Below are positions 3,501-61,926 of a DNA stretch of 64,000 bases, in pieces. This DNA is from Scenedesmus sp. PABB004 (taxonomy: Eukaryota). A model generated the notes under the pieces. The model searched no databases, had not been told where the DNA came from, and worked only from the letters and a program-made list of their open reading frames with translations. Location of the stretch: NCBI GenBank assembly GCA_014905635.1, contig JABVCE010000010.1, positions 496,001 through 560,000 of the forward strand, written 5' to 3'. The translations under genes were made by a program, and so were the position numbers. The first letter of the stretch is position 1. Every line of letters starts with the position of its first letter.

Positions 3501-3572
3501 GTCCAGCCGCGGGTCGGCGGGGCCCTTGCCCAGGACGTTGGCCACGGAGAAGGAGGACGACGGCGGCGGCAT
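518..3572 (-). CDS. CPK: calcium-dependent protein kinase (CDPK), 11 exons; alternative in-frame ATG at 3764
   Basis: Spliced motifs [57 protein letters not shown] and [21 protein letters not shown]. These are followed by a junction domain and four EF hands ([44 protein letters not shown]). Confidence 0.95.
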
Positions 3573-4345
3573 CGCGGCGCGCGGCCGCGGGCGCCCGCGG
3601 CGCGCGGCGCTGCTCCTGCCGGCGCGCGCGCGCGCTGCGCCGGCGGCGCCTGCGCCGGCGGCGGCGGCGATCAGGCGGCGCCGCCGCGGCGGGCCGCTGG
3701 CGCGGCCGGGCGGGGCGGGGCGGCGGCCCGGCCGGGAGCCAGGGCTGCTCTCGGGAGCCCGCATGCTGCTCCCGCGCGCCACGCCGCCCACGACCGGCGA
3801 GCCCGCGCACCTGGCTCTCGGGGACCGTCCGAGGAGCGCCCAAGCTAGCTCTCCGCGCCCTGTCGACGAGCAGACGCAGAGAGCGAGAGCAGCTCGCGGA
3901 GCTCGCGGCGCTGGCGCTGGGCGCCCGCTGCGACGCCGGCTGACTCGGGCCGCTGGCGCAGAGACCAGGGAACGGCACGGCAGCGGGCTGGGGCTTTGCG
4001 TCCGAACTGACCGCCGGGTGCTGCTGCTGCTGCCCCGGCGCGCAGCCCCGCCGCCCCCGGCTCAGTCACCGCAGCAGCCGGCTGCAGGACCGCGCTCCCA
4101 GCGTGGTCTGACAGGCTCGCAGCGCGCTCCCCAGGAAAGCTGAAGACCGCCTCCGCACGCTGCACGTTCAGGCCCTCTTCGCCCCAATCCCGGCCCTGCC
4201 GAGTCGCCCTGTGTGCTCGGGGTGAGGCCGCGGCGGGCGCCGGCGCCGGCGCCGCGCGGCGGCGGTTGGCGGCTGCCGCTGTGCTGCTCGCGCCGCCGCG
4301 CACGCCGCTCCCCGCGCGCGGCCGCTGCGCCGCATCGTTGACGCC

Positions 4346-28183: not shown

Positions 28184-28472
28184 CGCGGGCGAGCGGGGCA
28201 GCGGCGGCGCGGCTGTTGTTGAGGCCGTCGGCGGCGCCCTCATCGCCGCCGCATGCTGCCAGCGCTCGGGGGCTGCTCGCGGACGCGGGAATGCGCATCC
28301 CGGGACAAGCGGGGGCGCGCGAAACGGGAGCCGCGGCGGCGCGGCGGTTCAAAGTCGCTCCGCGCGCGCACGACAGCTGAGGGCAAAAGAAGCAGACAGC
28401 CAGCAGCCGTGCGCGACGCCTGCATCACGACGCCCGCGGGCCTTGCGCGCGCGCCACGCCGCCGCGCGACCG

Positions 28473-29912: not shown

Positions 29913-31294
29913 TCAGCCCATGTGCGCGACGGCCTCCGCCTCCTTCACCGCCAGCTCCAGCTCGTTCAGCTTCGCCTCCAGGATCTCGAGCGCCTGCCAG
30001 ATGATCTCGCGCACCTGCGGCGGCGGCGGGGCCGGCGGCGCCGCCGCTCGGCGCCCAGCGCCGCGCCCTGCGCCGCTGCCGCGCTGCGCCCAGCGCCGCG
30101 GCCGCGCTGCGCGCCGCCGCCGCACCGGCAGCGCGCCGGTGCCCTCGATTCGGAAGATGAACGTGTCCTGGCGCTGCTTGATCTCCACGAGCCCCGGCTT
30201 GCCCAGCGCCGCGGCCTTGAGCAGCACCTCGTCGTCAAACGCGTACGCCTCCGGCTCGACCACGCTCACCTGCGCACCGCGCGCGCGTGCGTGCGTGCGT
30301 GTGCGTGTGCGTGTGTGTGTGTTTGTGTGTGGCGGGGGGGGGGGGGGGGGGGGAAGCGGGCGGTCGCCGCCGCCGCAGCGGCCCCTGCCATGCGCCGCCT
30401 GCTGCTGCTGCTGCTGCCGCTGCCGCCGCCGCCGTCTCCCTCTGCCGTGCGCGGCGCCGGCAGCTGCTGCTGCTGCCGCTGCCGCTGCCGCCGCCGTCCC
30501 CTCTGCCGCGCGCCGCCTGCAACGTGGCGCCGCGCCGCGGCGCGCCGCCGCCGCGCCGTGCCGCGCCGCCGGCGCCGCCCGCGCCCGCGCGCCGCGGCGC
30601 GCACCTGGCGCGTGGCGGGGTCGTACTTGAACGCGTTGCGGCTGGCAGTGTGGGGGTTTGAGTTGACAAACTCCTGCTTCTGCTCCTCGCTCAGCTCGTC
30701 CATGAGCGCGGCGTTGAGGGTGATGTCGGCGCCAAACTGGTACACCGCCGTCGCGACCGGGATCCACTTGGCGTGGTCCTTGCCGATTCCCTTGCGCGCG
30801 ATGGCCTTGAGCCGGATCTCCTGGTTGCGGCCGAGCTTGAGGATGACGACCGGCTTCACGCCCGACCCGCTCGCCGCCTGCAGCGCCGCCGTGACGGGCA
30901 CGACCGGGTGCCCGCCCTCAGGCAGCAGGTCCAGGTCGGTGACGTCCATGGAGCGCTCGTCGGTGCACTTGACGGCCAGCGAGAAGCCCACCTCCGCGAC
31001 CTGGCCCTCCACGCCCACCTCCTCGAACGGGCGCACCATCTGCCGCGCAAAGTCGCTCACCAGCGGGATCAGGCCCAGCCGGTGCGCGATGAACTCGTCG
31101 TTCAGCACGCTGGTGTTGTTCTCAAAGTCCACCAGGTCGATGGCGATGGTGGGGACCTCGGCGATGATGATTCGCCGCAGCGCGTTGGCCACCGAGACGT
31201 CCGTGTCGCTCAGCACGAACTCCCCGTAGTCGTCCTCCAGCCGCCGCATCGTAATCTTGGGCCGCCGGTGGCCCCCGGCCACGTACGCGGCCAT
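29913..31294 (-). CDS. RPB3: RNA polymerase II subunit 3, 3 exons
   Basis: Motifs SVANALRRIIIAEVPTIAIDLV, NTSVLNDEFIAHRLGLIPL, KAIARKGIGKDHAKWIPVAT and FIFRIEGTGALP. Confidence 0.96.
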
Positions 31295-31591
31295 GGCGGC
31301 CGCCGCCGCCGCCGGCGCGCCCTCTGCTGCTGCTGCGCCGGCCTCACAGCGGCGCGCGGGCCATGGCGGCGCCCCTGCGCGTGCCGGGTGCGCACGAGCG
31401 GGCTGTCGGCGTGGGAGTGGAGTGGGCAGTATGGCGCGCGGAGCGCGGGGCACGGGCGGCAGCGGCGCGCGGCTGCAGCGGCAGCCGCGCGGGCGGCGGG
31501 GGTTCAGCAGCCGTGTCGGGGCGCCGGGACGCAGCGCTCGGTCCAGTCTCCGTCACAACTCCCTCACCGGCACACCCGCACGGCGACGCCG

Positions 31592-39374: not shown

Positions 39375-40938
39375 TCAGCCAAACATGCTGTCCCAGTCGG
39401 GGCCGCGCCCCGGGCCGGGCGGGGCGAGGTCAGGGTGCATGCCGTCCGGCCCGCCCGGGCCAAAGCCGCCGCCGCCGCCGCCGCGCCCCGGGCCAAAGCC
39501 GCCGCGCCCCGGCCGCGGACGCTGGAAATCGTCAGGCCGCCAGCCCTCCAGGCCCTCTGGGTCTGCCGGGGGAGCGCGAGCAGCGCGGAAGGGCGCGGGC
39601 GCGGCGGCGGCGGCGGCGGTGAGCAGGCCCACGCAGCGCAGGCCCCGGGTCGCGTGCGGCGCGGGCGGCCGGGGCGCCGGCCGCGGCGGTCGCCGCTGCG
39701 CGCCGCGCCACACACTGATGGGGTCCCAACGCGCGCCACCGGGGCCGCCGGGCAGGCCGCCGCCGCCGCCGCCGGGCATCAGGTCTGGGTGCCGCATCCT
39801 GCGGACAGGGCGCGGCGCCACGCCGCGTGTGGCCCGGCGCGGCGCCGCCGCTGCGCTCGGCGGGGGCGCCGCCCGCACGCGCGCGCCGCCCGCACGCGCG
39901 CGCCGCGCCCGCGCCCGCCCCACCTGTCGGCAAAGAAGGGGTGCCCCGGCCCCACGTGCATGCCGCCGCCGCCGACGGGGCCGCGCATTCCCCCCGGCGG
40001 CAGCACGCCGCCGCCGCCGCCGAGCATAGGCATGATGTCATCCTGCCCTGCACCCGCAGCGGCGGGCGGGCAGGGCCGCAGGTCAGGTCAGCGCTGGGCC
40101 GCGGCGCCGGCGCCGTGCAGCCGCGCAGCGCGCGCTGCACGCACCCACGCGCAGCGGCCGCCGCGGCGGGCCGATTCGCAGCGGGTCGTCGCCGTCGCCA
40201 CCGCCGGCGGCGCCGCGCTCGGGCTGCCGCTGCTGCTGCTGCGGCTCCGGCGCCGCGCCGCAGCCGGCCGCCTCCAGCCGCTGCTTCTTCTGCCCAGCGG
40301 CGCCGCCGCCGCCGCCGGCGCCGCCGCCGCCGCCGAGCCCCGCGAGCGCGCCGCCACGGCGGCCGCGAGCCGGTCCATGTTCCGCAGGTCCCCCGCCCGC
40401 GGCGCGCCGCCGCTGCCACTGGGGGCGGCCACGAACTCGTCCAGCGCCAGCTCCAGCACCGCCGGCGGCGCGGCGGGCGCGTCGCCCGTGAGCGTGGCGA
40501 GCAGCGCGTCGCCGCCGAGCGACAGCACCTTGAGCAGCAGCGCCGCCGGACGCGCCACCGCGCCGCCGCCGGGCGCAGCCGCGGCGTCGGCGACGTACCC
40601 GAACGCGTACTGCTCCGCGCTGGCGTCCCACCCCGCCACCGGCGCGTCGGGCGCGTCCGCGGACAGGCCTGCGCGCTCGGCGCGGGGCACGGCGCGGCGC
40701 GTGGGCCGCTGCCGGCCGCTGCTGCTGCCCGGGGCGCGCCGCGCCCGCCGCGCCCGCCGCGCCCGCCGCGCGCCGCGGGCGCACCTTCGAGCGTCGCGTC
40801 CTCACCCACCGCGACCAGGCGGTAGCCGCTGCTCAGCACGGCGGCGTGCAGCGCAAACGCGAGCGCGTCGGCGCGCGAGCGCAGCGCCGGCGCCGCCGCG
40901 CGCACGACCGCCAGCAGCGCCGCGGCGCCGCCGCTCAT
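39375..40938 (-). CDS. PSMF1: proteasome inhibitor PI31, 5 exons
   Basis: FP domain [31 protein letters not shown], followed by a Pro-rich tail with [20 protein letters not shown] and terminal DSMFG*. Confidence 0.88.
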
Positions 40939-41355
40939 GTCTCGCCCTCCACGCCCCGGGGCGACCGTGCCAGGCACGCGGACGGGCTGGCGCGCCCGCC
41001 TGGCGCTGGGCGCGCGGGGCTGGGCGACCAGGGCGCAGCGTAGCGCGCATGCGGGTGTCGAGCGCGCGCCGATCGGGCCGACGGAGCCGCTGTGGCCGGA
41101 GGAGACCGTGCGGGCGCGGCAGCGAGCGGAGCGGGCTTGTTAAAAACTTGGGACCTGGCTTCTGCTGTGCTGGCCGCGGCTGCTCAGTGCGGCGCCCGTT
41201 GGCAGGCCCCGGACACGACGCCACCGCCACCGCGCGCGCGCAGCTTGCGCCGCCCCCCAGGCGCTGCGGCCACCAGACAGCAGAGCAGCAGTGCCAGGCT
41301 CTCTCCGCGGCCCCAGGCCACCCCGCGGCCCGCGCCGCGGCGACTGCTCGTCACC

Positions 41356-41783
41356 ATGTCGACCGTCTACAACACCGAGCCGCCCACCAAGGGCAAGGTG
41401 CGGCGGGCGGCGCGCGGCGGGCGGCGGCGCTGCTGCTGCGGGTCGGTGGCCCGGCGGGCGTGGCGCGCGCCGCGCCGACCCCCGCGGCGCCCGCAGGTCA
41501 CGCTCAAGACCACCATCGGCGACCTGGACATCGAGCTGTGGCCCAAGGAGGCGCCCAAGGTGCGCGGCGGCGGCGGGGGCGCGGCCGCGCCCGCGATCGT
41601 GCGGCGCCGCGGAGCGGTGCGGCCGGCGCACCTCCCCACGCCGCGCGCGCGCCGCGGCGCCCCCAGGCGGTGCGCAACTTTGTGCAGCTCTGCCTGGAGG
41701 GCTACTATGACGGCTGCATCTTCCACCGCGTGATCAAAGACTTCATGGCCCAGGCGGGCGACCCCTCCGGCACGGGCGAGGGT

Positions 41784-41850
<67 letters not shown>

Positions 41851-44501
41851 TGCCGCTGCCGTCCGCGCCCGCGCCCTGCGCTCGACACGCCGCGTTGCGC
41901 CGCGCCGCGCCGCGCCGCGCCGGCCCCCAGGCGGGGAGTCCATCTACGGCGGCCCGTTCAAGGATGAGTTCCACAGCCGCCTGCGCTTTGCGCACCGCGG
42001 CCTCGTCGCGTGCGCCAACGCCAACGCGCCGCACACCAACGGCTCCCAGTTCTTCATCACACTCGACAAGTGAGCAGCAGCGGCGCACCCAGTGGCGGGC
42101 CGCGTGCACGCGCCCCGGCGGGCTGCGCTGCGCCGCCCGCGTCCACGCCGCCGCCCGCGCCGCCCGCGCCGCCGCCGCGCCACACAACAAGGACGGAGTG
42201 GCTCGACCGCAAGAACACCATCTTTGGCAAGATCGTCGGCGACACCGTGTACAACATGCTGCGACTCAACGAGCTCGAGGCGCGGCTGCGTGCGGCGCTG
42301 CGGGGCCCGCGGCGCCGCGCGCGCCAAGCGCGCCTGAGGCGCGCTTGGCGCGCCAGAGGGCCGCGCGCCGCCGCGGGCGCGCGCCGCCGACCGCCGCCGC
42401 GCGCGCGCGTGCGCGTGTGGGCGCAGGTCGATGAGGCGACCGACCGCCCGGCCGACCCTCCGGTCATAACGTCGGTGGAGGTGCTGTGGAACCCCTTTGA
42501 GGACATCGTGCCGCGCACCACGCCCGCGGAGCGCAAGGCGCAGGCGCAGTTCAAGTGCGGCCGCGGGCGCGCGCTCGGGCGCGCGGGGCGCGCCGCGCCG
42601 AGCGCCCGCCGCGCCGCGCCGCGCCGGCGCGCCGCCCCCGCAGGAAGGCGGAGGAGGTGCGCAAGGTGCGCAAGTCGCAGAAGCGCAACCTCGCGCTGCT
42701 GTCGTTCGGGGAGCAGGCGGAGGAGGATGAGGCCGACCTGGCGCGCGCGGCGGCCGCCACCGGCGGCGCCAAGATCCGGTGCGCGCGCCAGCAGCCAGCA
42801 GCAGCGCGCGCGCGGGGCCCCACGCGCGCGCGGGGCGGCCCCCGCGTGGCTGCCGGCCGGCGGCGCCGCGCCGGCGCCGAGGCTGCGCGCCGCGCGCTGC
42901 CCCGGCCGCGCGCCAGGTCGGCGCACGAGGTGCTGCGGGGTGACGCGAAGCTGCTGGCGCCGGAGGAGACGCGCCCGAGGTGCTGGCGGAGCGCGAGCGC
43001 CGCGCGGCGGCGGTGGCCAACGTGCAGAGCAAGCTGCAGGGCGCCGCGGCGGGCGGCAAGCGCGGCCGCGGCGACAGCAGCGGCAGCGACAGCGACAGCA
43101 GCGACGACGACGGCGAGCGCGGCGGCAAGCGCAGCAAGACCGCCGCCAACCGCAGCGGCGCCGCCGCGCTGGTGGCGGAGCGCGTGCGCGCGGCCACGGA
43201 GCGGGCGGAGAAGGCCGGCGGCGCGCGCGAGGCGCGCGAGGCCGAAGCAGCGGCGGCGGCGGCGGCCGCGGCCGCGCCGAGGGCGGCAAGGCCAAGCAGC
43301 GCGCGCGCAGCCGCAGCCGCAGCCGCAGCAGGAGCGGGAGCAGAGGCCGCGGCGGCGCGGCGGCGCAGGCGGCGGCGGCGGCGGCGACGAGCAGCAGCAG
43401 AAGCCTGGCAGCAAGGAGGATGAGCTGTATCAGCTCAAGGATAAGTCGGGCGCCGGCAGGTGGGCCCCCACGGCCGCGCGTGGCAGCGCGCGGCAGCAGC
43501 CCGCATGCTGGCGACCGCCCCGCGCCCACCACGCGCGCCCGTGTCCGCCGCCGCCCGCCGCGCCGCCAGGCTCCGCGTGGACGGCAGCGTCCCGGACGGC
43601 GAGCTGCTGAAGGCCTTTGAGCTGAGCCGGGCCAAGTACAAGACGCGCAAGCAGCAGGCGCGGCCGCGGCGGCGCCCGCGCGCCGCGCGCCGCGCCCGGG
43701 CCGCCCGCGCCGGCGCGCCGACGCCGCCGCGGGCCGCGCGCCGCCGCGCCGCGCGCCGCCGCGCCGCAGGTCGGCGGGCGGCAGAAGGACACGCTGTCCC
43801 GCCTCGCCGCCTTCACCAGCAAGCTGCGCGCGAGCCAGCAGGAGCAGCAGCATCAGCAGAGGCAGAGGCAGCAGCAGCAGCACGAGCAGGACGCGGCGGC
43901 GGCGGCGGCAGACGCCGGGGCGGACGCGGCCAAGCAGCAGGGCGCCGCGGCCGCCGCCGCCGCCGCCGACGGCGAGCAGGAGGCATACGACGGCAAGGTG
44001 CGCCGGCGGCCTCCTGAGCGCGCCGCACCGCCCACCCGCCCGCCGCTCACGCACGGGGCCCGCGCGTCGCGGCGCGCGCCGCCGCCGGCGCCGCACCCAG
44101 GTGCGGCGCGACATCGACCACCGCACCTACATGCCCGCCGCGTGGCGCGCCGACGACTACCTGGCGGGCGGCAGCGACGACGACGACGACCTCGACAGCC
44201 TGCGCAAGCACAAGTGCGGCGCGCCGCGCGCCGCCGCGGGGGCGCCGCGGGGCGCGCGCGGCCGTGCCGCCGCCGCCGCCCACGCGCGCCCGTCCGCCGC
44301 CGCCGCCCCCCCCCCCCCCCCCGCCGCCGCCGCGCAGGCTGGAGTTCAGCCGCGCGCCCGGCGACGCGATGGCGCGGCGGGACGAACTGGACGACTATGT
44401 CGTGTTTGACCCGCTGCTGGAGGAGAAGAAGGGCAAGTTCAGCCGCGCGGCGCAAAAGGAGAAGAAAGACGACCGGCTGGGCGGGCCGCGCGCACGGCTG
44501 A
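41356..44501 (+). CDS. CWC27: spliceosomal cyclophilin CWC27/CYP57, 12 exons
   Basis: [76 protein letters not shown] and DDYVVFDPL. Frameshifts near 42975 and 44466. Confidence 0.93.
41784..41850. repeat. (GCG)n intronic trinucleotide repeat
   Basis: About 22 copies directly after a splice donor. Confidence 0.85.
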
Positions 44502-44643: not shown

Positions 44644-47465
44644 TCACGCCTTGGACGCGCGGCCGACTTGTGGCTCGTCGGCAGCAGCGACTCGGCCGCC
44701 TCGCCCGCGCCGGCCTTGAGCTGGCCGTAGTACAGTAGCGCCGTGGCCAGCGCGCTCGCAATGAAGAGGCCGTTGAACCACCTGGGGTTTAGGGTTAGTG
44801 GGGGAGAGGCGACGGCGGGGCGCGGGGCGCCGCGGTCGAGCGCGCGGCGCGGACGCGCAGCGACCGGCCTCCAAGAACGCCGCCGCCCGCGCTGGCGGGG
44901 AGGAGCCCGCGCTCGCCCCGGCGGCGCCGCCGGCCGCACCGGTGGAAGTACTGAAACTCGAGCTCGCCGCCGCCGAGCACGGCGTCGATGGCGGCGCGGT
45001 GCGCGACGGGGACGTTGCGCCGGATGAGCAGCAGGCTGCTGATCGCGTACACGCCCGTGAGCTCGCTCAGCACGAGCACGAGGCTCGCGCCGCCGCCGCC
45101 GCGCGGCGCCGCGGCGTGCGAGCGCGCGCCGCCGCCGCCGCGCCGAGCCAGCCGCGCACGCTCGTGAGCGTGGCAAACACGCGCGCCGCGTTTTTGAGGA
45201 ACGCGCGGATGGAGAGTGCTGAGATGGTGCCGACAAAGAGCAGCGTCACGTACTGGCTCAGCAGCGCGGGGTCCAGCACCAGCCGGTCGTGGCTCAGCCG
45301 GCGCAGCACAAAGCCGAGCCACCTGGGGTTGACAAAGGCCGCGGGCACCGCGGCGGCGGTGGCGGCGGCGGCGGCGCCCGTCGGCGGCGGGCTCGGCGGC
45401 GGCGCGAGGGAGCGCCGGGCGCGCCGGGAGCGGGACGCCGCAGCGCGCCGCGCGCGCCGCGGCGCGCCGCGCCTGCTGACGGGGTCGCTGCTGAAGTCCT
45501 CGCCCACGGCGAGGGCCTTGGCGCTCGCGGCGACGCGGTAGAGGCAGTACGCTGACGTGGCGTAGCCGAGCGCGTTGCGCAGGTGCCCCGACAGCGAGCG
45601 GCTCGCGACCGCGCGCGCATGGTGGGCCTTGAGCTCCAGCAGCTCCACCAGCAGCGCCTGGCGCGGGGAAGAGGGGGGGGGCGAGGAAGGGCGTGAGGGG
45701 CAGGGAGGGAGGGAGGGAGGGAGGGGAGGGGTGGGGAGGGTGAGCAAGACGAGGGCGCGCGTCGGAGGGGGCGAGGGAGGCGAGCGATCGGCGGCGGCGG
45801 CGGCGGCAGCGGCGGCGGCGGCGGGACGCAGGCCGCGCCCTGCGCCAGCGTCTCCCACGTCGCGAGCTCCGCGTTGAGTGCGCGCAGCGTCTCGCGCGGC
45901 GAGCCGGGCGCGCTGCCGCCCGACCACGCGCCCACGAAGCTGCGCAGGCTGCCGAACAGCCCGCTGCTGCGCGCGGCGGCGCGGCGGCGGTGGGGCGGGG
46001 CCGGCGCTGGCGTGGCCGCCGCGGGCCGCGTGGCGCGCGCGCGCGCGCGCAGGGCCCACCGCTGCGCCCCGGCGTTCGGCTGGTGGCCGCGACCTCCTGG
46101 CTGATGAGCAGGATGCGCTTTTTCTTCTCGGCGCACACCTCCAGCGCCTGCCCGGGGCGCGGCACAGGGGCGCGGCGCGGCGCGGCGTCGGCCGCACGCG
46201 AGCTGCGCACACGCGGTGACGCACGCTGAGCACAAGCCACACACGTTCACTCAACACCAGCGCACACAGCGCGCGCCGCCGCGCACAGCGCGCCCCAGCG
46301 CGCAGCGCGCCCCCCCCCCCCCCCACACACACAGCGCGCGCCGCAGCGCGCAGCGCGCGTCGCCGCGCGCCGCGCGCCGCGCGCGCGCCCTGTCGATACT
46401 GCTGCTCCATGCCAGCGACCTCGCCCGCCTCCACGGGGCGGATGAAGAGGCTCAGGTAGCTGTAGGGGAAGTCGACGCTGGCATAGCCGCTCAGCAGGCT
46501 GATCACCCAGGTCCCCACCACGCCCAGCCGCGCGACCGCCTGCGTGCGTGTGTGTGCGTGTGTGTGTGTGTGTGGGGGGGGGGTGCGTGTGCGGTCGTGT
46601 GTGGGTGGCGGGCGCAGCGGCGAGGCGCGCGGCGTGCGGCGCGCGGCGCGCGGGCCTGGCCGACGGAGAGCGCGCTGCCGCCGAGGCCGAGGCCGCGGCC
46701 GAGGCGCCAGAAGGCGTAGAGGAAGGCGGCGTAGGCGGCCGCCGACAGCGGCAGCGCGCGCGCCGCCCAGAACGGGCCTGCGGCGCGCGGCGCAGCAGCA
46801 GCAGCAGCAGCAGCAGGGGTTTGGGCGCGTGGGAGAGAGGCAAGCGACCCCGCAGCGGGCCCCCGCGCGCAGAGCAGGGGGGGCGGAGGAGGAGCAGCAG
46901 GGCCCTCCCGCCCGGCGCTCACCGCTGGCGGTGAGTGTGCGGTATGCGTGATACCAGGGCAGCACGCACACGAGCAGCAGCACGAGCGCCCACACCGTCA
47001 GCCGCCAGTCCCACAGCCGCAGGCTGCGGCGCGGCGCGCGGCGGGCGGCGCGGCGGGCGGCGTCGTTGCGCCGCGTCCGCGTCCGCCGCTGCCGGCGAGC
47101 TCCGTGGTGCCGCCGCCGCGCGCACCTGGCGTCGAGGATGCCCAGGATTTCAAACACCACCAGCAGCAGCAGGTTGCAGGAGCACGCAAACGTGCTCGAC
47201 CAGAGCACCTTGCGCGGCGCGGCACGGCACAGGGCAGGTGCGCGCCGCGCGCTGCGCCGCCGCTGTCGCCGCGGAGCGCCCGCGCCCGCCCGCCGCGCCG
47301 CGCCGCGTCCGCCGCGCCGCGCGCCCGCCGCGCGGCGCCGCGCACCAGCACGCCCGTCTCGCGGTCGTCAAACGCCTGCAGCAGCGAGCTGCTCACGAAC
47401 AGCCAGCCGCCGGCGAAGCAGGCCGCCAGGCAGCCCAGCGCGAGCACCCAGTCGAGCGCCGCCAT
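44644..47465 (-). CDS. GTG: GPCR-type G protein / Golgi pH regulator (GTG/GPR89 family), 10 exons; exact stop uncertain
   Basis: Motifs FACSCNLLLLVVFEILGIL, QAVARLGVVGTWVISLLSGYASVDFPYSYLSLFIRPV, CAEKKKRI, SQYVTLLFVG, LSELTGVYAISSLLLIR and LEFQYFHRWFNGLFIASAL. Confidence 0.93.
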
Positions 47466-47965
47466 GGGCCGAGCCCGCGCCGGGAGCTACGCCGCGGCCG
47501 CTGCTGCTGCTCGGCGCTGCGCCCGCGGCGCGCCGCGCCGCGGCATGCGCCGACCGGCCCACGCGTGCGGCGGGCAGTCCAGCAGCCCCTGGCGGCGCGT
47601 TCGGGATCGCTTGCGGTGCGTGCGGCGTCGACGGGCGCCGGGGCAGCAGCGGCGGGGGTTGCGGCGGTTGGCGAGCGCTGCCGATCGCAGAAGCAGCGGC
47701 GGCGGTCGTGCTGGGTGCAGTGTCGTGCGGCGTCTCCGGAGGCAGCCGAGGTCGCGAGCGAGACGCCACGCAAAGCCGCGGCGCTCCGGCGCAGCGGCGC
47801 CGCCGCGCCGCACGGTGGCCCCAGCCGGCTGGCCGGCGCCAGCGCGCACCACCGTCGCCGCGCTGCCGCCCTCGCTGCGCTCCACGCCCCCGCTCGCAGC
47901 AGCAGGCGCGTCCGCGCCCGCGCGCCTGGGGCCCGCGGCGAGCGTGCGCGTCGCTGGGGTGCGCC

Positions 47966-50900
47966 ATGAGGTGCACTTCTTGTCGTCCGGGCCCGTGCGT
48001 GGGCGGCGGGCGCCGCCTGGCGCCGTCGCACGCCCGCGCGCCGGCCGGCGCGCCCGCCAGCGCCCGGCGCGGCCACTGCGGGCGGCTGGGGCGCGCCCCG
48101 CCGCGCCTGGGCCCGTGCGCGCTCGATCGGACGAGGAGGAGCCGGACTGGGACAAGGAAATGTCCATTTTCAAGCAGCGCACGATGCGCCCCAACCAGCT
48201 CGCCACGCTGCGCGAGCTGGAGTCCAAGGTCAACCTGGGCCGGTGAGGCGGCGGCGCGCGGGCCCGGCCGCCCTCCCGGCCGCCGGAGCGCGGCGCGGGC
48301 GCGGCGCGGCGCCGGCGCGGCGCCGCGAACGCGGCGCGCCCGCTGCCGCTCACCGCCGGCGCGCGGCCCGCGCGGGCGCAGGTGCTCTGGTGCGCCGACA
48401 GCCTGGCCATCATCAGCGGCATCAACCCCGACGCGCCCATCGGCACCAAGCTCGCCTTTGTCAGCGGCGGCTCGGGGTGCGCCCGCGGCCGCCCGCGCCG
48501 CGCGCTGCCGCCGCCGGGTCGGGCCGGGGCCGGGGACCGCGCGCCGCCCGCGCGCGCCGCCCACGCCCGCGCCCCGCCGCGCGTGCGCCGTGCCGGCGCA
48601 GCATCCTGCTGTGGCACCGCAGCGACAACCTCGCGTTTGCGATCGTCGCCGGCGGCGCGGACAGCATCCAGCCGGGCGAGGGCGTCGAGCCAAAGGTCAA
48701 GGGCATCCTCCAGGTGCGTGTGGGTGTGGGTGTGTGTGGGTGTGGGGGGTAAAGGAAAACCCTAAACCCTGTGTGTGGGTGTGTGGGTGTGGGTGTGTAG
48801 GTGTGGAGGGGGTGCACTCTGGGCGCGCACGCGCCCTGGACGCACGCGCGCCCGGGGGCCCCAGCCCGGGCGGTGATGGCGTCCCGTGCAGCGGAGGGCG
48901 CGCACGCGGCCCTCACCGCCCGGGCTCGGGCCCCGCGCGCGCGGCCGCGCGCGCGCGCAGCAGCCGCCGCGCCGGCCGCCGCACGCCCGGCGGCCGCACG
49001 CCCGCCGCAACATCCGCGACCGCCGACCGCGACCGCCACCGCGGCGCGGGCACGGCGCGCGCAGGTGCTGGACGAGGCGCGGGGGCCGATCACACGTAAG
49101 GAGTATGAGCTCATGCAGGCGCCCGCCGGCGACTCGCTGTACGGCGCGGCGGTCAACTACATCGGCCAGCCCGTGCCCGGCGTCTCCACGCCCGCCAACG
49201 ACGCGGCGGCCGCGGCGCGCGCGGCCGCCGCGCCGGGCGGCGCGCCCGCGGCGGCGGCGCCGGCGGCGTGCTCACGAGCTGGGAGGAGGAGGGCGGCGGG
49301 CCCGACCTCGCGGGCAGCGGCGCGAGCGCGCTGGGGCTGGAGCGGCTGAAGCCGCTCATCAACGCCCAGGTGGCGATGAAGAACCGCGAGCAGATCACCG
49401 AGCCCCTCTTTACCGGTGCGGCGGCGGCGGCGCGGCGCGGGCGCGGGCGGTTGGTCGGGCGTGCCGCGCGGGTGGTGGCCGAGCGCGGCGGCGGCGGCGG
49501 CAGCGGCGGAGGGAGGCGGCGGCGCGCGCTCACGCGCTCACGCGCCCGGTCGCCCGGCGCCCGGTCGCCCGGTCGCGCCCGGCCACGCAGGCGTCAAGGC
49601 GCTGGACACGCTCACGCCGCTCGGGCGGGGCGCGAGCCTGCTGGTCATCGGCCCGGCGGGGCGGGCAAGACGAGCCTCGCGCTGACAGCGATCCAGGGCC
49701 AGGCGGCCGCCGGCGTGCGCTGCGTGCTCGCGTGCACCACGCTCAGCACCGAGCAGCTCAACGCGCGCCTCGCGGTGCGCGCGGCGCGGCGGCGGGGCAG
49801 AGGAAGGAGGGGGGAGGGGGCACGCGCGGCAGGGAAGCGCGCGCGGGGCGCGCCCGCCGCGGCAGCGGGCGGCGCCCCGCCGACTCCCCCCCCCCGCGCC
49901 CTAGCCCTCTCCCGCGCCCACCCTCGCCCTCCCTCCCCGCCGCCGTGGCGCCCTCGCTCGCAGGAGCTCGAGGCCGCGGGGTGCCTGGCCAACACGGCCG
50001 TGTTCTACGCACCGCGCGACGCGCCGCTCGGCACCAAGCTGGCCACTCTCATGGCCGCCGCGGCGGCGGGCGAGCGCGTGCGCGACGAGGGCGGCCACGC
50101 GCTGGTGGTGCTCGACGACCTCACGCCCCTCTCGGGTGCGCGGGGAGGGGGGGGGCGCCGCGCCGCGCACGTGCTGTGCTGCGCGTGCTGTGTGCGCCGT
50201 GCGTGCTGCGCGGCGCACGGCACGCGCCTGCCGCCTGCCCGCCCGCCCACGCCCTCCCCGCCTCTGCCCGCTCGCCCACACGCCCACCCACCCCCGCCCA
50301 CGCCCACGCCCGCCCACGCCCACGCCCGCCCACGCCCGCGCCGCCTCGACCCTCTCCCGCCCCGCGCGCCCCCAGGCGCGTGGGAGCGGCTCGTGCTGTC
50401 GCTCGCGGAGCTCGGCCAGGCGCGGCTGCGCGAGGGTCTGATCAAGGACGAGGCGGGGCACGACGTGAGCCTAAACCCCGGCAGCGAGGCGGAGCTGGTG
50501 GACTACGAGGGCATGCTCGTGTCGGGCGCCGTCGCGCAGCGCCGCGGGTGCGCGCGCCGGCGGCGCGGCGGCGGCGCGCCGGGCGGCGTGGCGCACGGCG
50601 GCGCCGTCGCGCGCTTGCCACCCCGACCCGCCCACATCCCTGCCCCACCCCCTCCTCCTCCTCCTCAACCCTCTCCCTCCAACCCCCGCCCCGCCCGCGC
50701 CCCTCCAGCTTCTTCTCGGTCCTGTTCCTCCGCGCCGCCAAGCTCTCGTCGTCGTTTGGCGGCGGGTCCATGACGCTGCTCCCGCTCGTGCCGGGCCGCC
50801 CGCGAGCGGGCGCCGCGCGGCGGCGGGGCTCGACCTGTCAAAATACACCACGCTCAGCGAGGAGCAGAAGGCCAAGCTCGCGGCCGGCCTGGAGAAGCGG

Positions 50901-52113
50901 CGGGTGCGCGCGCGCGCGCGCGCGTGTGTGTGTGGGGGGGGGGGGGGGGTCGACGCGCGCACGTGCGGGGCACAGGCGCGCCGCAGGCGCGCGCCGCGCC
51001 GCGCGCGCGCGCCGGCCCACGCCGCCGCCGCCGACGGCCTGCGCGCGCGCGCGGCCCCAGGCGGCCGAGGCGGCGGTGCTCGGCCTGAGCGTCGGCCCCG
51101 GCGAGCTCAAGACCGAGACGGTGGAGGAGTTCATCTCAATCAGCGACGGCCAGGTGCGGTGTGCGACAGCCGCGGCGGCGCTGCGGCCCCGGCGCGGCGG
51201 CGGCAGACCGGCGTCCCTGGCGCGGCGGGGCGCGCCCGCGCGCCCGTGCGCCGGCGGGCCTGCCACAACCCCCTCCGACCGCCCCCCAGGTCGTGCTGGA
51301 GCCGAGCATGGCGCCGCCGCCGGCGCCCGGCGCCGCCGACGGCGCCGCCGGCGCCGCCGGCAGCGCCGCGGCCGCGCCGTTCAGCGTCAACGCGCGGCTC
51401 TGCGTCACGCGCATCGGCAGCCGCGCCTACTGCCGCGCGCTCGAGGCGCTCGCGCCGCAGATCCGGCTCGACCTCGCCCAGGCCGAGGACGCGCGCGCGT
51501 ACGCGGCCAACCCGGACGACCCCGTGCTGCGCCGGTGCGCCGCCGCGCCGCGCAGCCGCCGCTGCTCTGCCCTGCCCCCTGCCCTCTCCCCCCTGCCCAC
51601 TCCCTCCCGCTGCCCCCTCTCCTCCCCCGCCACACGCCCCGCCACGCCCCCAGGTATGAAGGCTACTGCCAACGCATTGCCGCGGCGCTCGCGCAGGAGC
51701 CGGGGCAGCCGACGCCGCTGGAGGAGCTGGTCGTCACGCTGCACGCGATCCAGGCGGGCCTCGCCGACGCGGTGCCGCCGCGCGACGTCGCCGGCTTTGT
51801 CGCCGCGGGGCTCGACGCGCTGCGGCGCGAGCAGCCGCAGGTGACGCGGCAGCGGCGGCGGCGCCGGCGGCGGCGGCGGCTGCTGGCTGCGGCAGGGGCC
51901 CCGCGCAGCTCCCCGCCCCCCGCCGCGCGCCTGACCTGACGGCGCGCCGCGCTGCCCCTGCGCGCTCATCAGGTGCTGCTGGACATCGCCGCCTCCAAGC
52001 AGCTCACCGCGGCGGGCGAGCGCGGCATCGCGGCCGCGTTCAAGGCGGCCGCCGCGGCGTGGCAGCAGAAGCAGCAGTCGCAGCAGCAGCAGCAGGGAGA
52101 GGCGCAGCAGTGA
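47966..52113 (+). CDS. divergent nuclear-encoded F1-ATPase alpha-subunit-like protein, 12 exons; several 1-nt frameshifts, start inferred
   Basis: REQITEPLFTGVKALDTLTPLGRG, P-loop GPAG(A)GKT, GERVRDEGGHALVVLDDLT, FLRAAKLSSSFGGGSMTLLPLV, FISISDGQ, VTRIGS, IRLDLAQ and LAQEPGQPTPLEELVV. Confidence 0.88.
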
Positions 52114-54199: not shown

Positions 54200-54542
54200 G
54201 TGGGAGGCGAGGGGCTGCGCTGCGGCGGCTGCCGGGCGCGGAGGCTTCCAGGCGCGCGCGGCTGCGTGCGGTCGCTGCGGTCGAGCTGCGGGGTGGCCAG
54301 GGGTGTGGGGCGCTCGTGCGGCGGGTGACCGGGCGAGCGGAGTGGGCGGGCGGCGGGGGGCGCCAAGCGAGGGCTCGAGGGGGGGGGGGGGATTTTGGGG
54401 GCCGAGCCCCGAGCCCTCAGTTTGCAAATGCGCGAGGCGCCCCCGCCTCCCGCCCAGATCGCGCGCCCGTCCGCGCAGCACCTCCCACGTGCCCGCCCGG
54501 CCGCCCGCGACGCGCGAGGAGGCGCCGAGAGGCTCCGCAATC

Positions 54543-55784
54543 ATGAAGCCCGCTGCCGCGCCCCGCAAGAAGGAGTATAAGAAGGGCGTGGACGCGGACG
54601 ACGCGCGGCGCAAGCGGGAGGACAACATCATCGAGCTGCGCAAGAACAAGCGCGATGAGAACCTGCAAAAGAAGCGCATGGTGAACGCGGGGCCGTCCTA
54701 CGCGATGGAGGACTCCTCCGCGCGCACCAGCCTCGCCCTGCAGAACAAGGTGCGGGGCCCCCGCCCACAGCCGGCGGCGCGCCGCCCCGCGGCGCCGCAG
54801 CGCGCCGGGCGGGGTGCGCAGCAGCACGGCGCATGATGGCGGCCCGCCCCGCGCCCGCCCGGCGCCGCGGGCGGCCCCTCCGCGGCGAGACCGCGGCGCC
54901 AGGCCGTGCCTCAGTGCCGGGGCGCGCCGCGCGGCGGCGCCGGCGCCGCGGCGGCCAGCAGCGCGCGCGGCGGCGGCGGGCGGCGCGCCGCTGCTGCCGC
55001 CGCCGCCGCGGCGCCGGCGCGGCGCGGCGCGCGGGGAGGACGGCCGGGGGAGCGCCGCGCGACCGCCCTCCCGATGCGGCCCCCTGCGCGCGTCGTGCTG
55101 AGCGCTCGCTGAGCGCCGGGGCCTCGCCGCCGCCGCGCGCGCCGTCCGCCTCGCGCGCCGCAGCAACTCGACGAGCTGCCCGCCAAGGTGCAGGGCCTCT
55201 ACAGCCAGAACCCGCAGGAGCAGTACGACGCGACGCAGTGGTTCCGCAAGCTGCTCTCCATCGGTGCGCCGGCGCGCGCGCGCGCGGGCGCGGGGCCGAG
55301 CGGCGGCGGCCGCAGCAGCGGCGGCAGCAGCTGCGGCGGCGGCGGCGGCCAAGGCGGCGGCGGCAGCGGCGCCGCGCTCCCGCGGCCCCGCAGCGCCCCG
55401 CCGGCGCGCCCACGCCCGCGCCTCGCGCGCCCGCCGCGGCCGCGCGCGCGCGCGCGCCCAACCGCCGCAACCGCCGCGCTGCCTCTCGCCCACGCCGCCG
55501 CCGCCGCGCCGCGCGCTCGCCCCCGCGCCGCGCAGAGCGCAACCCGCCGATCGAGGAGGTGATCAAGCAGAACGTCATCCCGCAGTTTGTCAACTTCCTG
55601 AAGCGCGCGGAGATGCCGCAGCTGCAGTTTGAGGCCGCGTGGGCGCTCACCAACGTCGCGAGCGGCACGTCCGACCACACCAAGGTCGTCATCGACGAGG
55701 GCGCGGTGCCCATCTTCGTGCAGCTGCTGCAGTCGCCCAGCGACGACGTGCGCGAGCAGGTGACCCGGCGGCCGCCGCCTCGCA

Positions 55785-55817
<33 letters not shown>

Positions 55818-56891
55818 GCCGCACCACGCCACGCGCGCCGCCCACGCGCGCGCGCACCTGGTGCCGCCGCCGCCGCGTCGCCGCAGGCGGTGTGGGCGCT
55901 GGGCAACATTGCGGGCGACTCGCCGCACTGCCGCGACCTCGTGCTCAACGCGGGCGCGCTGCCGCCGCTGCTGGAGCAGCTCAAGGAGGGCAGCAAGGTC
56001 TCCATGCTCCGCAACGCGACCTGGACGCTCTCCAACTTCTGCCGCGGCAAGCCGCCGCCCAACTTCAGCGTGGTGCGCCCCGCCCGCGCGCTGCGCGCGG
56101 GGCGTGCCAGCGCCGCGCCGCGCGCGGGGCGTGCCAGCGCCGCGCCGCGCGTCGCAGCACGCGCCGGCCGGCCCACCCGCGCGCGCCGCCCCGCCCCCTC
56201 CCGTCCCGCGCGCGCGCTGCAGACGCGCAACGCGCTGCCGACGCTCGCGCGGCTGATCCATGCGGGCGACGAGGAGGTGCTGACGGACGCGTGCTGGGCG
56301 CTGAGCTACCTGAGCGACGGCGACAACGACCGCATCGACAAGGTCATCGAGGCCGGCGTGTGCAGGCGCCTCGTGGAGCTGCTGCTGTGAGCGACGCGCC
56401 GCGCGTGGGAGGGCTGCGCGCGCGCAGGAGGGCCGCGCGCCGCGCCGCGAGCGCGCGTGGGAGGGGGCTGCTGCTGCGCGCGTGCGGCGTGCGGCGTGCG
56501 TGCGTGCGTGCGTGTTTTGGAGGGCGTCGGCGACGCGCGCGGCGCGGCGCATCGCGCTCACAGGCCGCCGCCGCCGGCGCCGGCGCGGCGCCGCGCGCGC
56601 GCGCGCAGGCACACGTCGCCCGCGGTGCTCGTGCCGGCGCTGCGCACGGTGGGCAACATCGTCACGGGCAACGACATGCAGACGCAGGTCGTCATCAACT
56701 GCGGCGCGCTCGGCTGCCTGCTCACGCTGCTCACGGCGGCGCACAAGAAGAGCATCAAGAAGGAGGCCTGCTGGACGATCAGCAACATCACCGCCGGCAC
56801 CAAGGAGCAGATTCAGTCGGTCATCGACGCAAACATACTGCCCCCGCTCGTCGCGCTGCTGCAGGCGCGCGGCTGCTGCTGCTGCTGCTGC

Positions 56892-56925
<34 letters not shown>

Positions 56926-57429
56926 CGCGCGGCGGCGCGGCGCGCGGCGCGCGGGCGCGGCGGCGCGCGCGCGCTCGCGCGCGCCGCGCCCACGCGCGAT
57001 GCGCCCGCCCCGCCCCGCCCCGCAGTCGGCGGAGTTTGACATCAAGAAGGAGGCCGCCTGGGCGATCAGCAACGCGACGAGCGGCGGCACCGCCGAGCAG
57101 GCGCGCGCCGCGCCCGCGCCGCGCCCGCGCGCGCCGCCCACCGTCCCTCTCCCTCGCTGCGCCCCCCTCCCGCGCCACACGCACACACACACTCTCTCTC
57201 CCCTGCCCTCCGTCCCCGTACCCCGGCGTCCCAACACTTCACCCCTAAACCCCTAACCCCCCTCCCCCCTACCCCCCCCCCCCCTCCCGCAGATCCGCTA
57301 CCTGGTCGAGGTCGGCGCGATCCGCCCGCTGTGCGACCTGCTCAGCGTGCCGGACGTGCGCATCGTCACCGTCGCGCTGGAGGGCCTCGAGAACATTCTC
57401 AAGGCGCGCACCACCAGCACCCGCCGCAC

Positions 57430-57467
<38 letters not shown>

Positions 57468-58184
57468 TCGCTGCCGCCACAGCGACCAGCGCGCCGCGCA
57501 GCGCGGCGCAGCGCCTCCTCCTCTCTGCCCCCACCCGCCCACGCCCACACCCACACCCACACACCCGCACACGCAGGTGGGCGAGACGATGAAGCGCATG
57601 CCCGGCGGCAGCGGGTCCAACCCCTTTGCGCAGCTGGTGGAGGACGCGGACGGCCTGGACAAAATCGAGGCCCTGCAGGCGCGCGGCGCAGGCGGCCGCG
57701 CGCGCCACGCGCGGCGCCTGGCCGCGCCGCCGCCGCCGCCGCTCGGGCGCGCGCGCGCCTTGCTTGCGGCTCCCTCCCTCTCGGCCCCTCCCTGCCCCCT
57801 TCCCCCCACACTCGCTCGCTCGCTCACTCGCGCTCACTCGCACTCACTCACTGGGTGCCCACACTCGCTCGCGCACCCACTCCCACCCACACACCCACCC
57901 ACACGCCCACACCCACAGGAGCACCAGAACGAGGACCTGTACGAGAAGGCTGTCTCCATACTGGAGGCCTACTTTGAGTGCGAGGAGGGGGACGACCAGA
58001 ACCTCGCGCCCGCGCTCGCGGGCAACACGTACGCGTTTGGCGCGCCGCCCGGCGCGGCGGGCGCGCCCGGCGGCGCCGCCGCGGCGCCCGGCAGCGGCGG
58101 CGGCTTCAACTTCAACGACGGCGCCGGCGGCGCCGCGCCGCCGGCGGGGCGTTCAACTTTCAGGGCTTTGGCGGGCCCAAGTGA
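54543..58184 (+). CDS. IMPA: importin subunit alpha, 10 exons
   Basis: IBB domain ([34 protein letters not shown]) and ARM repeats ([40 protein letters not shown]). The FG-rich tail needs a frameshift near 58147. Confidence 0.97.
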
Positions 58185-60494: not shown

Positions 60495-61926
60495 ATGGGC
60501 GCCGCCGCTGCGGCGCCGCGCCTGGCCCTCGCCGGCGGCGGCGCCGCCGCGCTCGGGCTCGCGGCCGCGCTGCTGCGCCGCGCCGCGGCCTGGCTCCGCG
60601 CGCGCCGGCGGCGCTTCGGCGGCCTCGAGAGCCTCGTGAGCTACTCGTCGCGCCTGATCGCCGCCGCGCGCGCCGCCGAGTCGGCGCGGCCGGACGCGTA
60701 CGTGGTCGACCCCCTCGCAGCGGTGCTCGCGGGCCCGCAGGCGATGGCGCGGCACCGGGTGGGTGCGCCAGCGGCCGCCCGCCGGCACGCGCTGCAGCGC
60801 CGGACCTCGCCCCGCGACGCCTCGCCGCCGCGCTGCGGCGGCCGCAGGACGTGGGCGCGGAGCAGCCGCCGCCGGGCGCGGCGGGGCGGCCGGTGCCGCG
60901 GCTGATCATGCGGACCGCGTTTTTTGACGACGCCGCGCTCGCGGCGGTCGGGCGGCCGCCCGCGCGCGCGGCCGCGGCGCTCGCGCCGCTCCTCGAGCAC
61001 GTGCGCGGCGCGGCCCTGCCGCCCTGCCGGCAGGTGCGCGCGCGGCGCGCGGCGTGCGGCGCTCGCCGGGGGCGGCGCAGCGTTGACGCCGCGCCGCGCG
61101 GCAGGTGGTGATGCTGGGCTCCGGCATGGACACGCGGCCGTGGCGCCTGGCGCTGCCGCCGGGCGTGGCCTGGTTCGAGGTGGACCGGCGCGACGTGCTC
61201 GCCGCCAAGCAGGCGGAGCTCGTGGCCGCGGGCGTGGGCTTTGAGCCGGCGGGCGCGCCGCGCGCCGGCGGCGGCCCGGGCCTCGCGGCGGGCAGCTGGC
61301 GCTGCGCCGCGGCGGACCTGCAGGCGCCGGGCTGGGTGTCGCGGCTCGCGGCGGCGGGGCTGGACGCGGACGCGCCCGTCGTGTGGCTGGCCGAGGGCCT
61401 GATGTACTATCTGGAGCCCAGCTCGGTCGCGCCCATGCTGCGGGTGGGTGCGCCGCGAGGCACGGCGGAGGGACGGCCGCGGGCCGGGGCCGGGCCCGCG
61501 GGCCGAGGGAGGGCGCAGGCGCCGACGCGCAGCTCCGCGCCGGCCGGCCGCGCGCGCGTGCAGGAGGCGGCCGCGGCGTCGCCGCGCGGCAGCGTGCTGG
61601 CAGTCAACCTCATCACCGCGGAGGGCCTGGCGCTCATCCGGGCGCGCGCGGCCGGCGGCGGCGCCGGCGGCGGCGCGGCAGGCGCCGCGCGGCGCGGCGG
61701 CGGGCGCGGCCGGCCGTCGGGGCTGATGTCCCAGTTTCGCTGGGGCTGCCCCGACGCCGTGGAGGACTTTTTCGCGGCGTGCGGCTGGACCGTGCTCGTG
61801 CGGCACAGCTGGACGCAGGCCGCGGGCCGCTACGGCTGGACGCCGCAGCTGCCCGCCGGCGACACCGCGCCGCGGCCGCCCCGCCTGGAGGTGCAGTTCG
61901 TCGTCGCCGTCGTGAGCAGCGCCTGA
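60495..61926 (+). CDS. SAM-dependent methyltransferase, LCM/ML2640-like, 4 exons
   Basis: IAAARAAES..YVVDPLA, MRTAFFDD, QVVMLGSGMDTRPWRL, WFEVD, ADL..W and VWLAEGLMYYL. Confidence 0.9.

Follow-up and report, generated by a model that had tools for sequence, protein, structure and literature searches.

A predicted nuclear xATPA gene of Scenedesmus sp. PABB004 whose reading frame is broken four times in the assembly

The DNA analysed here is a stretch of 64,000 nucleotides of Scenedesmus sp. PABB004 (assembly GCA_014905635.1, contig JABVCE010000010.1, positions 496,001 to 560,000 of the forward strand), which is referred to below as the window and whose composition is uniform, with 76-83% G+C in 32 of 32 two-kb bins. 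On its + strand, at 47966-52113 in window coordinates, lies a gene that is assigned on its sequence to xATPA, a nuclear family of F1-ATPase alpha-like proteins, as the orthologue of Chlamydomonas Cre10.g419050 (ATP1B); its predicted product differs from both mitochondrial ATP1 and plastid AtpA. The reading frame of this gene is broken four times in the assembly, each time by a single missing base, and the breaks are attributed, with a probability of roughly 65%, to consensus errors of the assembly, in which case the living alga would carry an intact gene. Since the xATPA family has already been described, what the locus appears to add is a corrected gene model, the retention of nucleotide-site motifs and the question of whether this copy is intact.

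The family placement was obtained from several kinds of comparison. When the open frame 49109-50770, read through its introns, was used as the query at a threshold of E <= 1e-3, 14 proteins were matched, the best being P0001, listed as 'atpA [Scenedesmus sp. PABB004]', and the others including proteins from Tetradesmus, the scenedesmacean full-length transcripts P0003 and P0004, CHLRE_10g419050v5, and proteins from Volvox and Pleodorina. A HMMER search against 1.84 billion representatives returned 2,420 proteins at E <= 1e-3, of which 592 reached E <= 1e-10 and 51 reached E <= 1e-30. The window model and 83 proteins of at least 480 residues, taken from the best 150 and the first hits, with P0001, P0002 and shorter fragments left out, were then used to infer an 84-row tree (LG+G4, quick search, Shimodaira-Hasegawa-like approximate likelihood ratio test (SH-aLRT) support only, unrooted, with no beta outgroup). 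In this tree, the window gene groups with P0003 and P0004 (SH-aLRT 100), and this group is nested in a 15-row chlorophycean clade (100), itself within a 30-row clade (98) that belongs to a 38-row xATPA side (95). The canonical GDR..GK[TS] loop occurs in 37 rows, and all of these are placed on the opposite side, within one 38-row clade (100). The curated NCBIfam models agree with this division, as P0004 reached 159.1 bits against a cut-off of 484.45 for TIGR00962 and 165.8 against 554 for NF009884, missing both, and also missed the N-ATPase alpha model TIGR03324 (117 bits against 750.5), whereas the canonical alpha control P0089 scored 589.2 bits. Identity to canonical F1 alpha is 25-28%. Additionally, a phmmer search of the PDB gave 99 distinct sequences at E <= 1e-5 (best E 5e-39), and among the matches listed (60 of the 99) all are alpha chains by their depositor names.

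A preliminary description, made from the letters alone, had taken the locus for a divergent F1 alpha-like protein with a full alpha-type layout, and every motif that it listed was found on the + strand at 47966-52113 by three-frame reading and by tblastn with the orthologue P0004, namely VVLDDLTPL, GGGSMTLLP, ISISDGQ, VTRIG, GASLLVIGPAG/AGKT, a long replacement of RRPPGREAYPGD, and DLSKYTTLSEEQKAKL. In canonical alpha subunits the P-loop reads GDRQTGKT and the RRPPGREAYPGD segment is uninterrupted. The window, in contrast, reads GPAG/AGKT at the loop, as that description had noted, and both of the insertions it pointed out are found when intervals between motifs are counted in an alignment of 43 rows (A1), comprising 32 xATPA-type and 11 canonical rows. 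The VVLDDL-FFSVLF interval, where an insertion replaces RRPPGREAYPGD, is 62 residues long in the window model and 39-136 in all 32 xATPA-type rows, compared with 29 in all 11 canonical rows. The SMTLLP-EEFISIS interval is 61 residues long in the window model, 14 in each of the 11 canonical rows, and 56-144 in 31 of the 32 xATPA-type rows, the exception being P0033 (15). The fixed position of the latter insertion, together with its length of about 60 residues, suggests that it corresponds to the bump domain described for the family. A third insertion, of low complexity, lies between the beta-barrel and the nucleotide-binding domain, and the alignment blocks to PDB chains pair query residues 201-342 with alpha residues 140-280, 403-430 with 308-334, and 486-652 with 346-506.

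With regard to the nucleotide site, 25 of the 32 xATPA-type rows have the Walker A pattern (G....GK[ST]), among them all 11 chlorophycean rows closest to the window; in the remaining seven, which are the more distant ones, it is degenerate. The P-loops of the orthologues read GP(x)G(S/A)GKT. The arginine-finger Arg occurs in 41 of 43 A1 rows, the window having VTRIG, and the Walker B DD is also present in the window gene. Chlorophycean xATPA retains Walker A, Walker B and the arginine finger, which is a new point of this analysis. The fold was approached through P0004, whose identity to the window model is 75-78% and which, when modelled with A1 as the alignment, gave a predicted local distance difference score (pLDDT) of 90.0 and a predicted template modelling score (pTM) of 0.90, with mostly helical insertions. 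The top Foldseek matches of this model are F1 alpha chains (E 2e-38, target-normalised TM 0.72-0.82), so that the product of the window gene is modelled, through its orthologue, as having the three-domain F1 alpha fold.

Alignment of P0004 by tblastn, combined with the junction sequences, resolves the gene into 12 exons, and 10 of its 11 introns are phase-consistent GT-AG introns with the consensus GTG(C/A)G...CAG. Codon bias is strong in every exon (G+C at third codon positions, GC3, of 0.96 in a self-trained codon model), and the conceptual model from position 48112 comprises 693 residues. Of the 14 exon pieces, three gave a Pfam match: PF00006 was recognised in 49964-50134 (E 1.5e-7) and again in 49590-49661 (E 0.0036), while the stretch 51655-51840 matched PF00306 (E 8.7e-6). 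No match was obtained for the remaining 11, which are too short or too divergent. A metagenome scan found one related contig, L001 (79% identity, 59% GC), from another species, whose first four exons and their junctions match those of the window gene, and this comparison is taken to settle the exon structure rather than the lengths of base runs. The parts of the gene, all on the + strand, are as follows, with the three forward frames called f0, f1 and f2.

47966..47968, + strand: candidate start codon ATG, in frame f1, with the conserved coding sequence downstream in f0
48112..48243, + strand: exon 1, conserved part (…DEEEPDWDKEMSIFKQRTMRPNQLATLRELESKVNLGR), with its donor one base out of phase
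48382..48476, + strand: exon 2, N-terminal beta-barrel, from tblastn with P0004, ending at a GT-AG phase-2 junction that is the same in L001
48602..48713, + strand: exon 3, beta-barrel, 92% identical to P0004 residues 61-98
49065..49415, + strand: exon 4, with a -1 frame change from f2 to f1 within 49211-49265, in an Ala/Gly-rich stretch
49591..49774, + strand: exon 5, Walker A GPAG-AGKT at 49650-49672, with a base missing after 49660 in a G run
49964..50135, + strand: exon 6, Walker B VVLDDL, Asp codons 50114-50119, PF00006 (E 1.5e-7)
50376..50547, + strand: exon 7, first insertion, replacing the RRPPGREAYPGD region, from residue counts and PDB alignment blocks
50709..50903, + strand: exon 8, GGGSMTLLP and the first half of the bump (…LDLSKYTTLSEEQKAKLAAGLEKRR), with a base missing after 50801 in a C run
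51061..51153, + strand: exon 9, second half of the bump followed by EEFISISDGQ, from three-frame reading, tblastn and residue counts
51290..51534, + strand: exon 10, arginine-finger VTRIG (51404-51418), Arg codon 51410-51412, from three-frame reading and tblastn
51654..51840, + strand: exon 11, C-terminal helical domain, PF00306 (E 8.7e-6)
51973..52113, + strand: exon 12, with the stop codon at 52111-52113, from three-frame reading and tblastn

Intron 3 carries, at 48757-48770, two tandem CCCTAAA copies (AAACCCTAAACCCT) of telomere type or resembling a telobox, and is otherwise full of GT/GGGTGT microsatellite.

Relative to its orthologues, the gene is one base short at four places: 48242/3 at the exon 1 donor, 49211-49265 in exon 4, 49659-60 in the P-loop, and 50800-01. 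At the first of these, the window reads CCGG/TGAGG where L001 reads CGG/GTGCGT (the slash marking the splice site), and the missing base means that canonical splicing puts exon 2 out of frame. In exon 4 the frame passes from f2 to f1 between 49211 and 49265, with a codon-model call at 49251, and the corresponding exon of L001 is one unbroken frame. In the Walker A motif the frame changes from f2 to f1 after 49660 within a G run, the broken codon being GGN, and at the fourth place it changes from f0 to f2 after 50801 within a C run, the broken codon being CCN; the residues are therefore Gly and Pro independently of which base is missing. The read-through protein matches P0004 over these last two breaks, P0004 reading LVPGRPASG across the fourth. 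Apart from the exon 1 donor, splice dinucleotides are canonical at the other 21 of 22 sites, and the exons contain no in-frame stop. The frameshifts mentioned in the preliminary description are thus real features of the sequence as given, and its suggestion that they might mark an unexpressed pseudogene is retained as a less likely account, weighed below.

Before the cause of the breaks is considered, two other identities for the locus have to be addressed. It could be an ordinary mitochondrial alpha subunit (ATP1), divergent only through the extreme GC content, and current names agree with this: the NCBI label for P0001 is 'atpA', and, according to the part of the xATPA preprint used here (10.64898/2026.07.08.737214), the orthologue is carried in Chlamydomonas databases under the name ATP1B, annotated as a mitochondrial ATP1A isoform. 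However, the same text states that this mitochondrial annotation was made without localisation data and that the location was never shown, and the window gene itself departs from ATP1 in its replaced GDRQTGKT loop, in intervals of 62 and 61 residues where canonical alphas have 29 and 14, and in scores far under the canonical cut-offs. The phylogeny that the preliminary description had proposed sets the gene apart from all 37 canonical alphas, so that it does not group as ordinary ATP1, and this identity, rejected on the tree and the curated cut-offs, is considered very improbable. An origin from an N-ATPase-type (alternate F1F0) or another bacterial alpha-like ATPase, by transfer or contamination, would account for a non-canonical P-loop and was among the comparisons suggested at the outset, but it is more improbable still and was also rejected, given that the TIGR03324 score is far below its cut-off and lower than the score for canonical alpha, that the gene has 11 spliceosomal introns and a host-like GC3 of 0.96, that its flanking genes (GPHR and importin-alpha) are eukaryotic, and that orthologues occur in green algae.

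The cause of the frame breaks is a closer matter, the choice being between consensus errors and a recent pseudogene with four, perhaps five, genuine one-base deletions, of which the first truncates the product; in the latter case the reduced-genome strain would be a natural xATPA knock-out. Assembly error is favoured because the changes are deletions only, with no insertion among the breaks, because the other splice sites are intact and because there is no excess of amino-acid change. In a tally of unique changes at columns otherwise invariant among nine green orthologues, the window protein has five, compared with four in P0004, 13 each in P0003, P0007 and P0015, and 20 in P0016, the close volvocine rows having three (P0009), one (P0010) and one (P0011), with P0012, which was not in the tally, taken as 0. 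In the 84-row tree the terminal branch of the window gene (0.13) is not longer than those of its sisters (0.15 and 0.12), and over 195 codons compared with L001 the ratio of nonsynonymous to synonymous rates (dN/dS) is 0.11. In a real pseudogene, substitutions should have accumulated as well, unless indels dominated its mutation spectrum, and the usual ratio of substitutions to indels predicts many more amino-acid changes beside four indels. Against real decay also stand the codon bias, intact in all exons, and the two breaks at which the residue is fixed whatever base is restored. Additionally, the C-terminus of the neighbouring importin-alpha gene probably lacks a base in a CGGCGGGGCG context that it shares with the P-loop break, as after 58146 the well-biased frame continues in f2 and the nominal frame is poorly biased onward; this switch probably marks a single base missing from an essential gene. 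Indels without substitutions, exactly the pattern observed, would be expected from a local island of unpolished consensus.

Several points weigh against assembly error, and most of them speak for the pseudogene. The deficits are clustered, with four in about 2.1 kb of coding sequence, whereas three control genes of the same window, about 4.2 kb in total, have none or one. Of these controls, RPB3 was compared with its orthologues and shows no shift over about 0.95 kb. The calcium-dependent protein kinase (CDPK) and importin-alpha genes, each of about 1.6 kb, show no internal shift in a by-eye reading guided by Pfam hits and family knowledge. In simulations the codon model recovered 35 of 40 deletions and 32 of 40 insertions. 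Applied to 31,497 coding bases, it called 12 shifts, of which three are the internal breaks of the xATPA gene; the nine others coincide with short GT-AG or GC-AG introns or can be accounted for by them, an explanation that needs GC-AG donors of the GCGCG type and is too permissive to prove either way. A binomial calculation by hand gave p of about 0.05 when the three controls served as the reference, and a lower value when the whole window did. Because the breaks are concentrated in the xATPA gene, a uniform assembly error rate is rejected. The assembly is, moreover, 96% complete by BUSCO in the table of a comparative paper (PMC12571836), and the preprint, in the part cited, reports xATPA to be absent from several algal groups (10.64898/2026.07.08.737214). 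Finally, the start of the gene is ambiguous: ATG 47966, the sole + strand ATG within 47545-48160, is in frame f1, and the conserved DEEEPDWDKEMSIFKQ (DEEEPDW...MSIFKQ) is in f0, so that the Arg/Ala-rich N-terminus requires either a fifth shift or another start. Over 48046-48126, GC3 is 1.0 in f1 and 0.81 in f0, and a fifth -1 shift near 48110 is possible. Taken with the evidence above, a recent pseudogene is held to be clearly the less likely of the two explanations, and consensus error, confined to a local region, the preferred one.

The placement in xATPA connects the window gene with a family named in a July 2026 bioRxiv preprint (10.64898/2026.07.08.737214), which is drawn on here in part. 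In that part, Cre10.g419050 is equated with ATP1B and xATPA, 222 homologues are reported from microalgae and none from land plants, red algae or cyanobacteria, and the clade is separate from mitochondrial, plastid and bacterial alpha. Its members are described with a bump domain of about 60 residues, a conserved arginine finger and a P-loop that is not consistently conserved. The Phaeodactylum protein (B7FRE6) is reported to be located in the plastid; knock-outs grow poorly in the cold, at low salt and in constant light; pull-downs recover ATPB and ATPC; and in AlphaFold 3 models the bump blocks the third beta, a role with unassembled F1 being proposed. The same text states that canonical alpha and diatom xATPA differ in growth in a yeast delta-ATP1 strain, and that beta is bound by xATPA in vitro five times more weakly than by alpha (dissociation constant five times that of alpha). 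The preliminary description had seen in the locus a neofunctionalised organellar alpha paralogue, perhaps a regulator or assembler of F1 or of chloroplast F1 (CF1), and this view was well directed, since the preprint reports such a role for the family and the tree, the NCBIfam scores and the insertions place the gene there.

The window gene shares with xATPA/ATP1B its clade, the alpha fold, the insertion of about 60 residues before SI.DGQ and the conserved arginine finger, and it is likewise a nuclear gene whose coding sequence continues 5' of the beta-barrel, like the Chlamydomonas presequence. It differs in that the window gene and its chlorophycean relatives keep Walker A, whereas the preprint, in the part cited, stresses P-loop loss; in that chlorophycean members have a second, variable insertion replacing RRPPGREAYPGD; and in the fourfold break of the frame in the assembly. 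With canonical F1 alpha, whether mitochondrial ATP1, plastid AtpA or bacterial AtpA, it has in common the three domains, Walker A and B, and the SI(S/T)DGQ and (S/T)R(I/V)G motifs through which alpha takes part in the catalytic site of beta, but it differs by missing the curated cut-off (159 against 484 bits), by GPAGAGKT in place of GDRQTGKT, by its three insertions and by its position on the separate side of the tree. Another protein to be compared is the 70-kDa non-catalytic F1-associated protein of Chlamydomonas thylakoids, which associates with CF1 subunits and whose size class is near the 693 residues of the window model; its identity with xATPA is a proposal of the preprint authors, in the part of the text cited (10.64898/2026.07.08.737214). 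Concerning the N-terminus, the orthologue models P0004 and P0007 begin at the Met of MSIFKQ, without a presequence, and conserved coding sequence (…EEPDW..EM) extends 5' of this Met in the window, in L001 and in volvocine proteins. Either these two models are truncated at the 5' end, or an internal start yields an untargeted isoform.

By orthology to the diatom protein, the product would be imported into an organelle, most likely the plastid, and would bind the beta subunit at the alpha-type interface. With the bump predicted to obstruct the adjacent beta subunit, the protein might sit in incomplete F1-like assemblies with beta and gamma, where it would modulate beta, or the biogenesis or activity of F1, rather than take part in ATP synthesis in the holoenzyme. 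A more specific and tentative proposal, considered less likely than not, is that chlorophycean xATPA could be a nucleotide-binding stand-in for alpha that forms one competent site with beta in an incomplete, bump-capped F1, and could act there as a soluble stromal ATPase or as a nucleotide-sensing brake on CF1 assembly, not as an inert competitor. This proposal is based on Walker A GP.G.GKT, Walker B DD, the Ser of SI.DGQ and the arginine finger, all kept in chlorophycean xATPA, whose nucleotide-site motifs are complete, unlike those of the P-loop-less diatom type.

The public annotation of the gene deserves separate comment. In P0001 (581 aa), 553 of 581 residues lie in exact 12-mers shared with the exon model, and the remaining 28 are the out-of-frame translation of the window directly 5' of the P-loop, which indicates that P0001 was predicted from this very stretch. 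The NCBI model avoids the breaks by means of invented introns and lacks VLWCADS, the Walker A frame and SMTLLPLVPG...; the 'atpA' model is mis-named and mis-built, being without Walker A and the GGGSMTLLP strand. The assembly is described, in the part of the source used here, as 39.8 Mb in 77 contigs with 78.5% GC and 7,092 genes at the BUSCO value given above (PMC12571836), and the listed 78.5% GC fits the composition of the window. Mining xATPA from the public PABB004 model would therefore mislead on motif loss. Green-lineage xATPA keeps nucleotide-binding motifs that the preprint, in the part cited, treats as dispensable (10.64898/2026.07.08.737214). Chlamydomonas, with its mutant libraries and chloroplast genetics, is well suited to the question of whether xATPA binds nucleotide and how it affects beta. 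If, on the other hand, the frame breaks were real, this sugar-secreting strain would be a natural xATPA knock-out.

The other genes recognised in the window are the following.

About 560-3573, - strand: CDPK gene, with kinase domain and four EF hands (Pfam)
25366-28186, - strand: coiled-coil/TPR/DnaJ protein (Pfam)
29922-31303, - strand: RPB3, RNA polymerase II subunit 3, intact (orthologue comparison)
40170-40941, - strand: PI31 proteasome regulator (Pfam)
41650-44000, + strand: cyclophilin with a long charged tail (Pfam)
About 44658-47465, - strand: Golgi pH regulator (GPHR, GPHR/ABA_GPCR), oriented divergently to the xATPA gene
About 54540-58183, + strand: importin-alpha gene (Pfam, by-eye reading)
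61087-61923, + strand: leucine carboxyl methyltransferase (Pfam)

Patatin, lipase-3, SET and GST fragments were also detected by Pfam. The GPHR ATG at 47465 lies about 500 bases from ATG 47966, a spacing that suggests a bidirectional promoter common to the GPHR and xATPA genes. A homologue search with the GPHR open frame, read through its introns, yielded no usable match, as low-complexity words dominated the candidates. A protein search with RPB3 gave a best match of 80% identity and none from the PABB004 proteome, and this essential gene may have been left out of the public annotation, which counts 7,092 genes. At the end of the importin-alpha gene, 58040-58183 (+), the last 12 codons are in f2 and the preceding exon is in f0, the switch lying in the GGGG run 58143-58150.

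The 12 calls of the codon model fall at 3259, 26542, 40356, 43247, 43300, 45140, 47224, 49251, 49653, 50818, 56874 and 63838. Every one of them is a -1 shift, even though the model recovered simulated insertions nearly as well as deletions, and, if the nine calls outside the xATPA gene are bridged short introns, all of these have lengths of 2 modulo 3. The candidate shift at 45140, in GPHR, was rejected, as a 74-nt GC-AG intron fits there. Short introns with apparent GC-AG donors, reading GCGCG(C/G) from the splice site, occur in the DnaJ-TPR, CDPK, importin-alpha and GPHR genes, at 26016-25853 (-), 3299-3208 (-), 56867-57027 (+) and 45157-45084 (-). GC-AG introns usually make up about 1% in eukaryotes, and such donors look commoner here.

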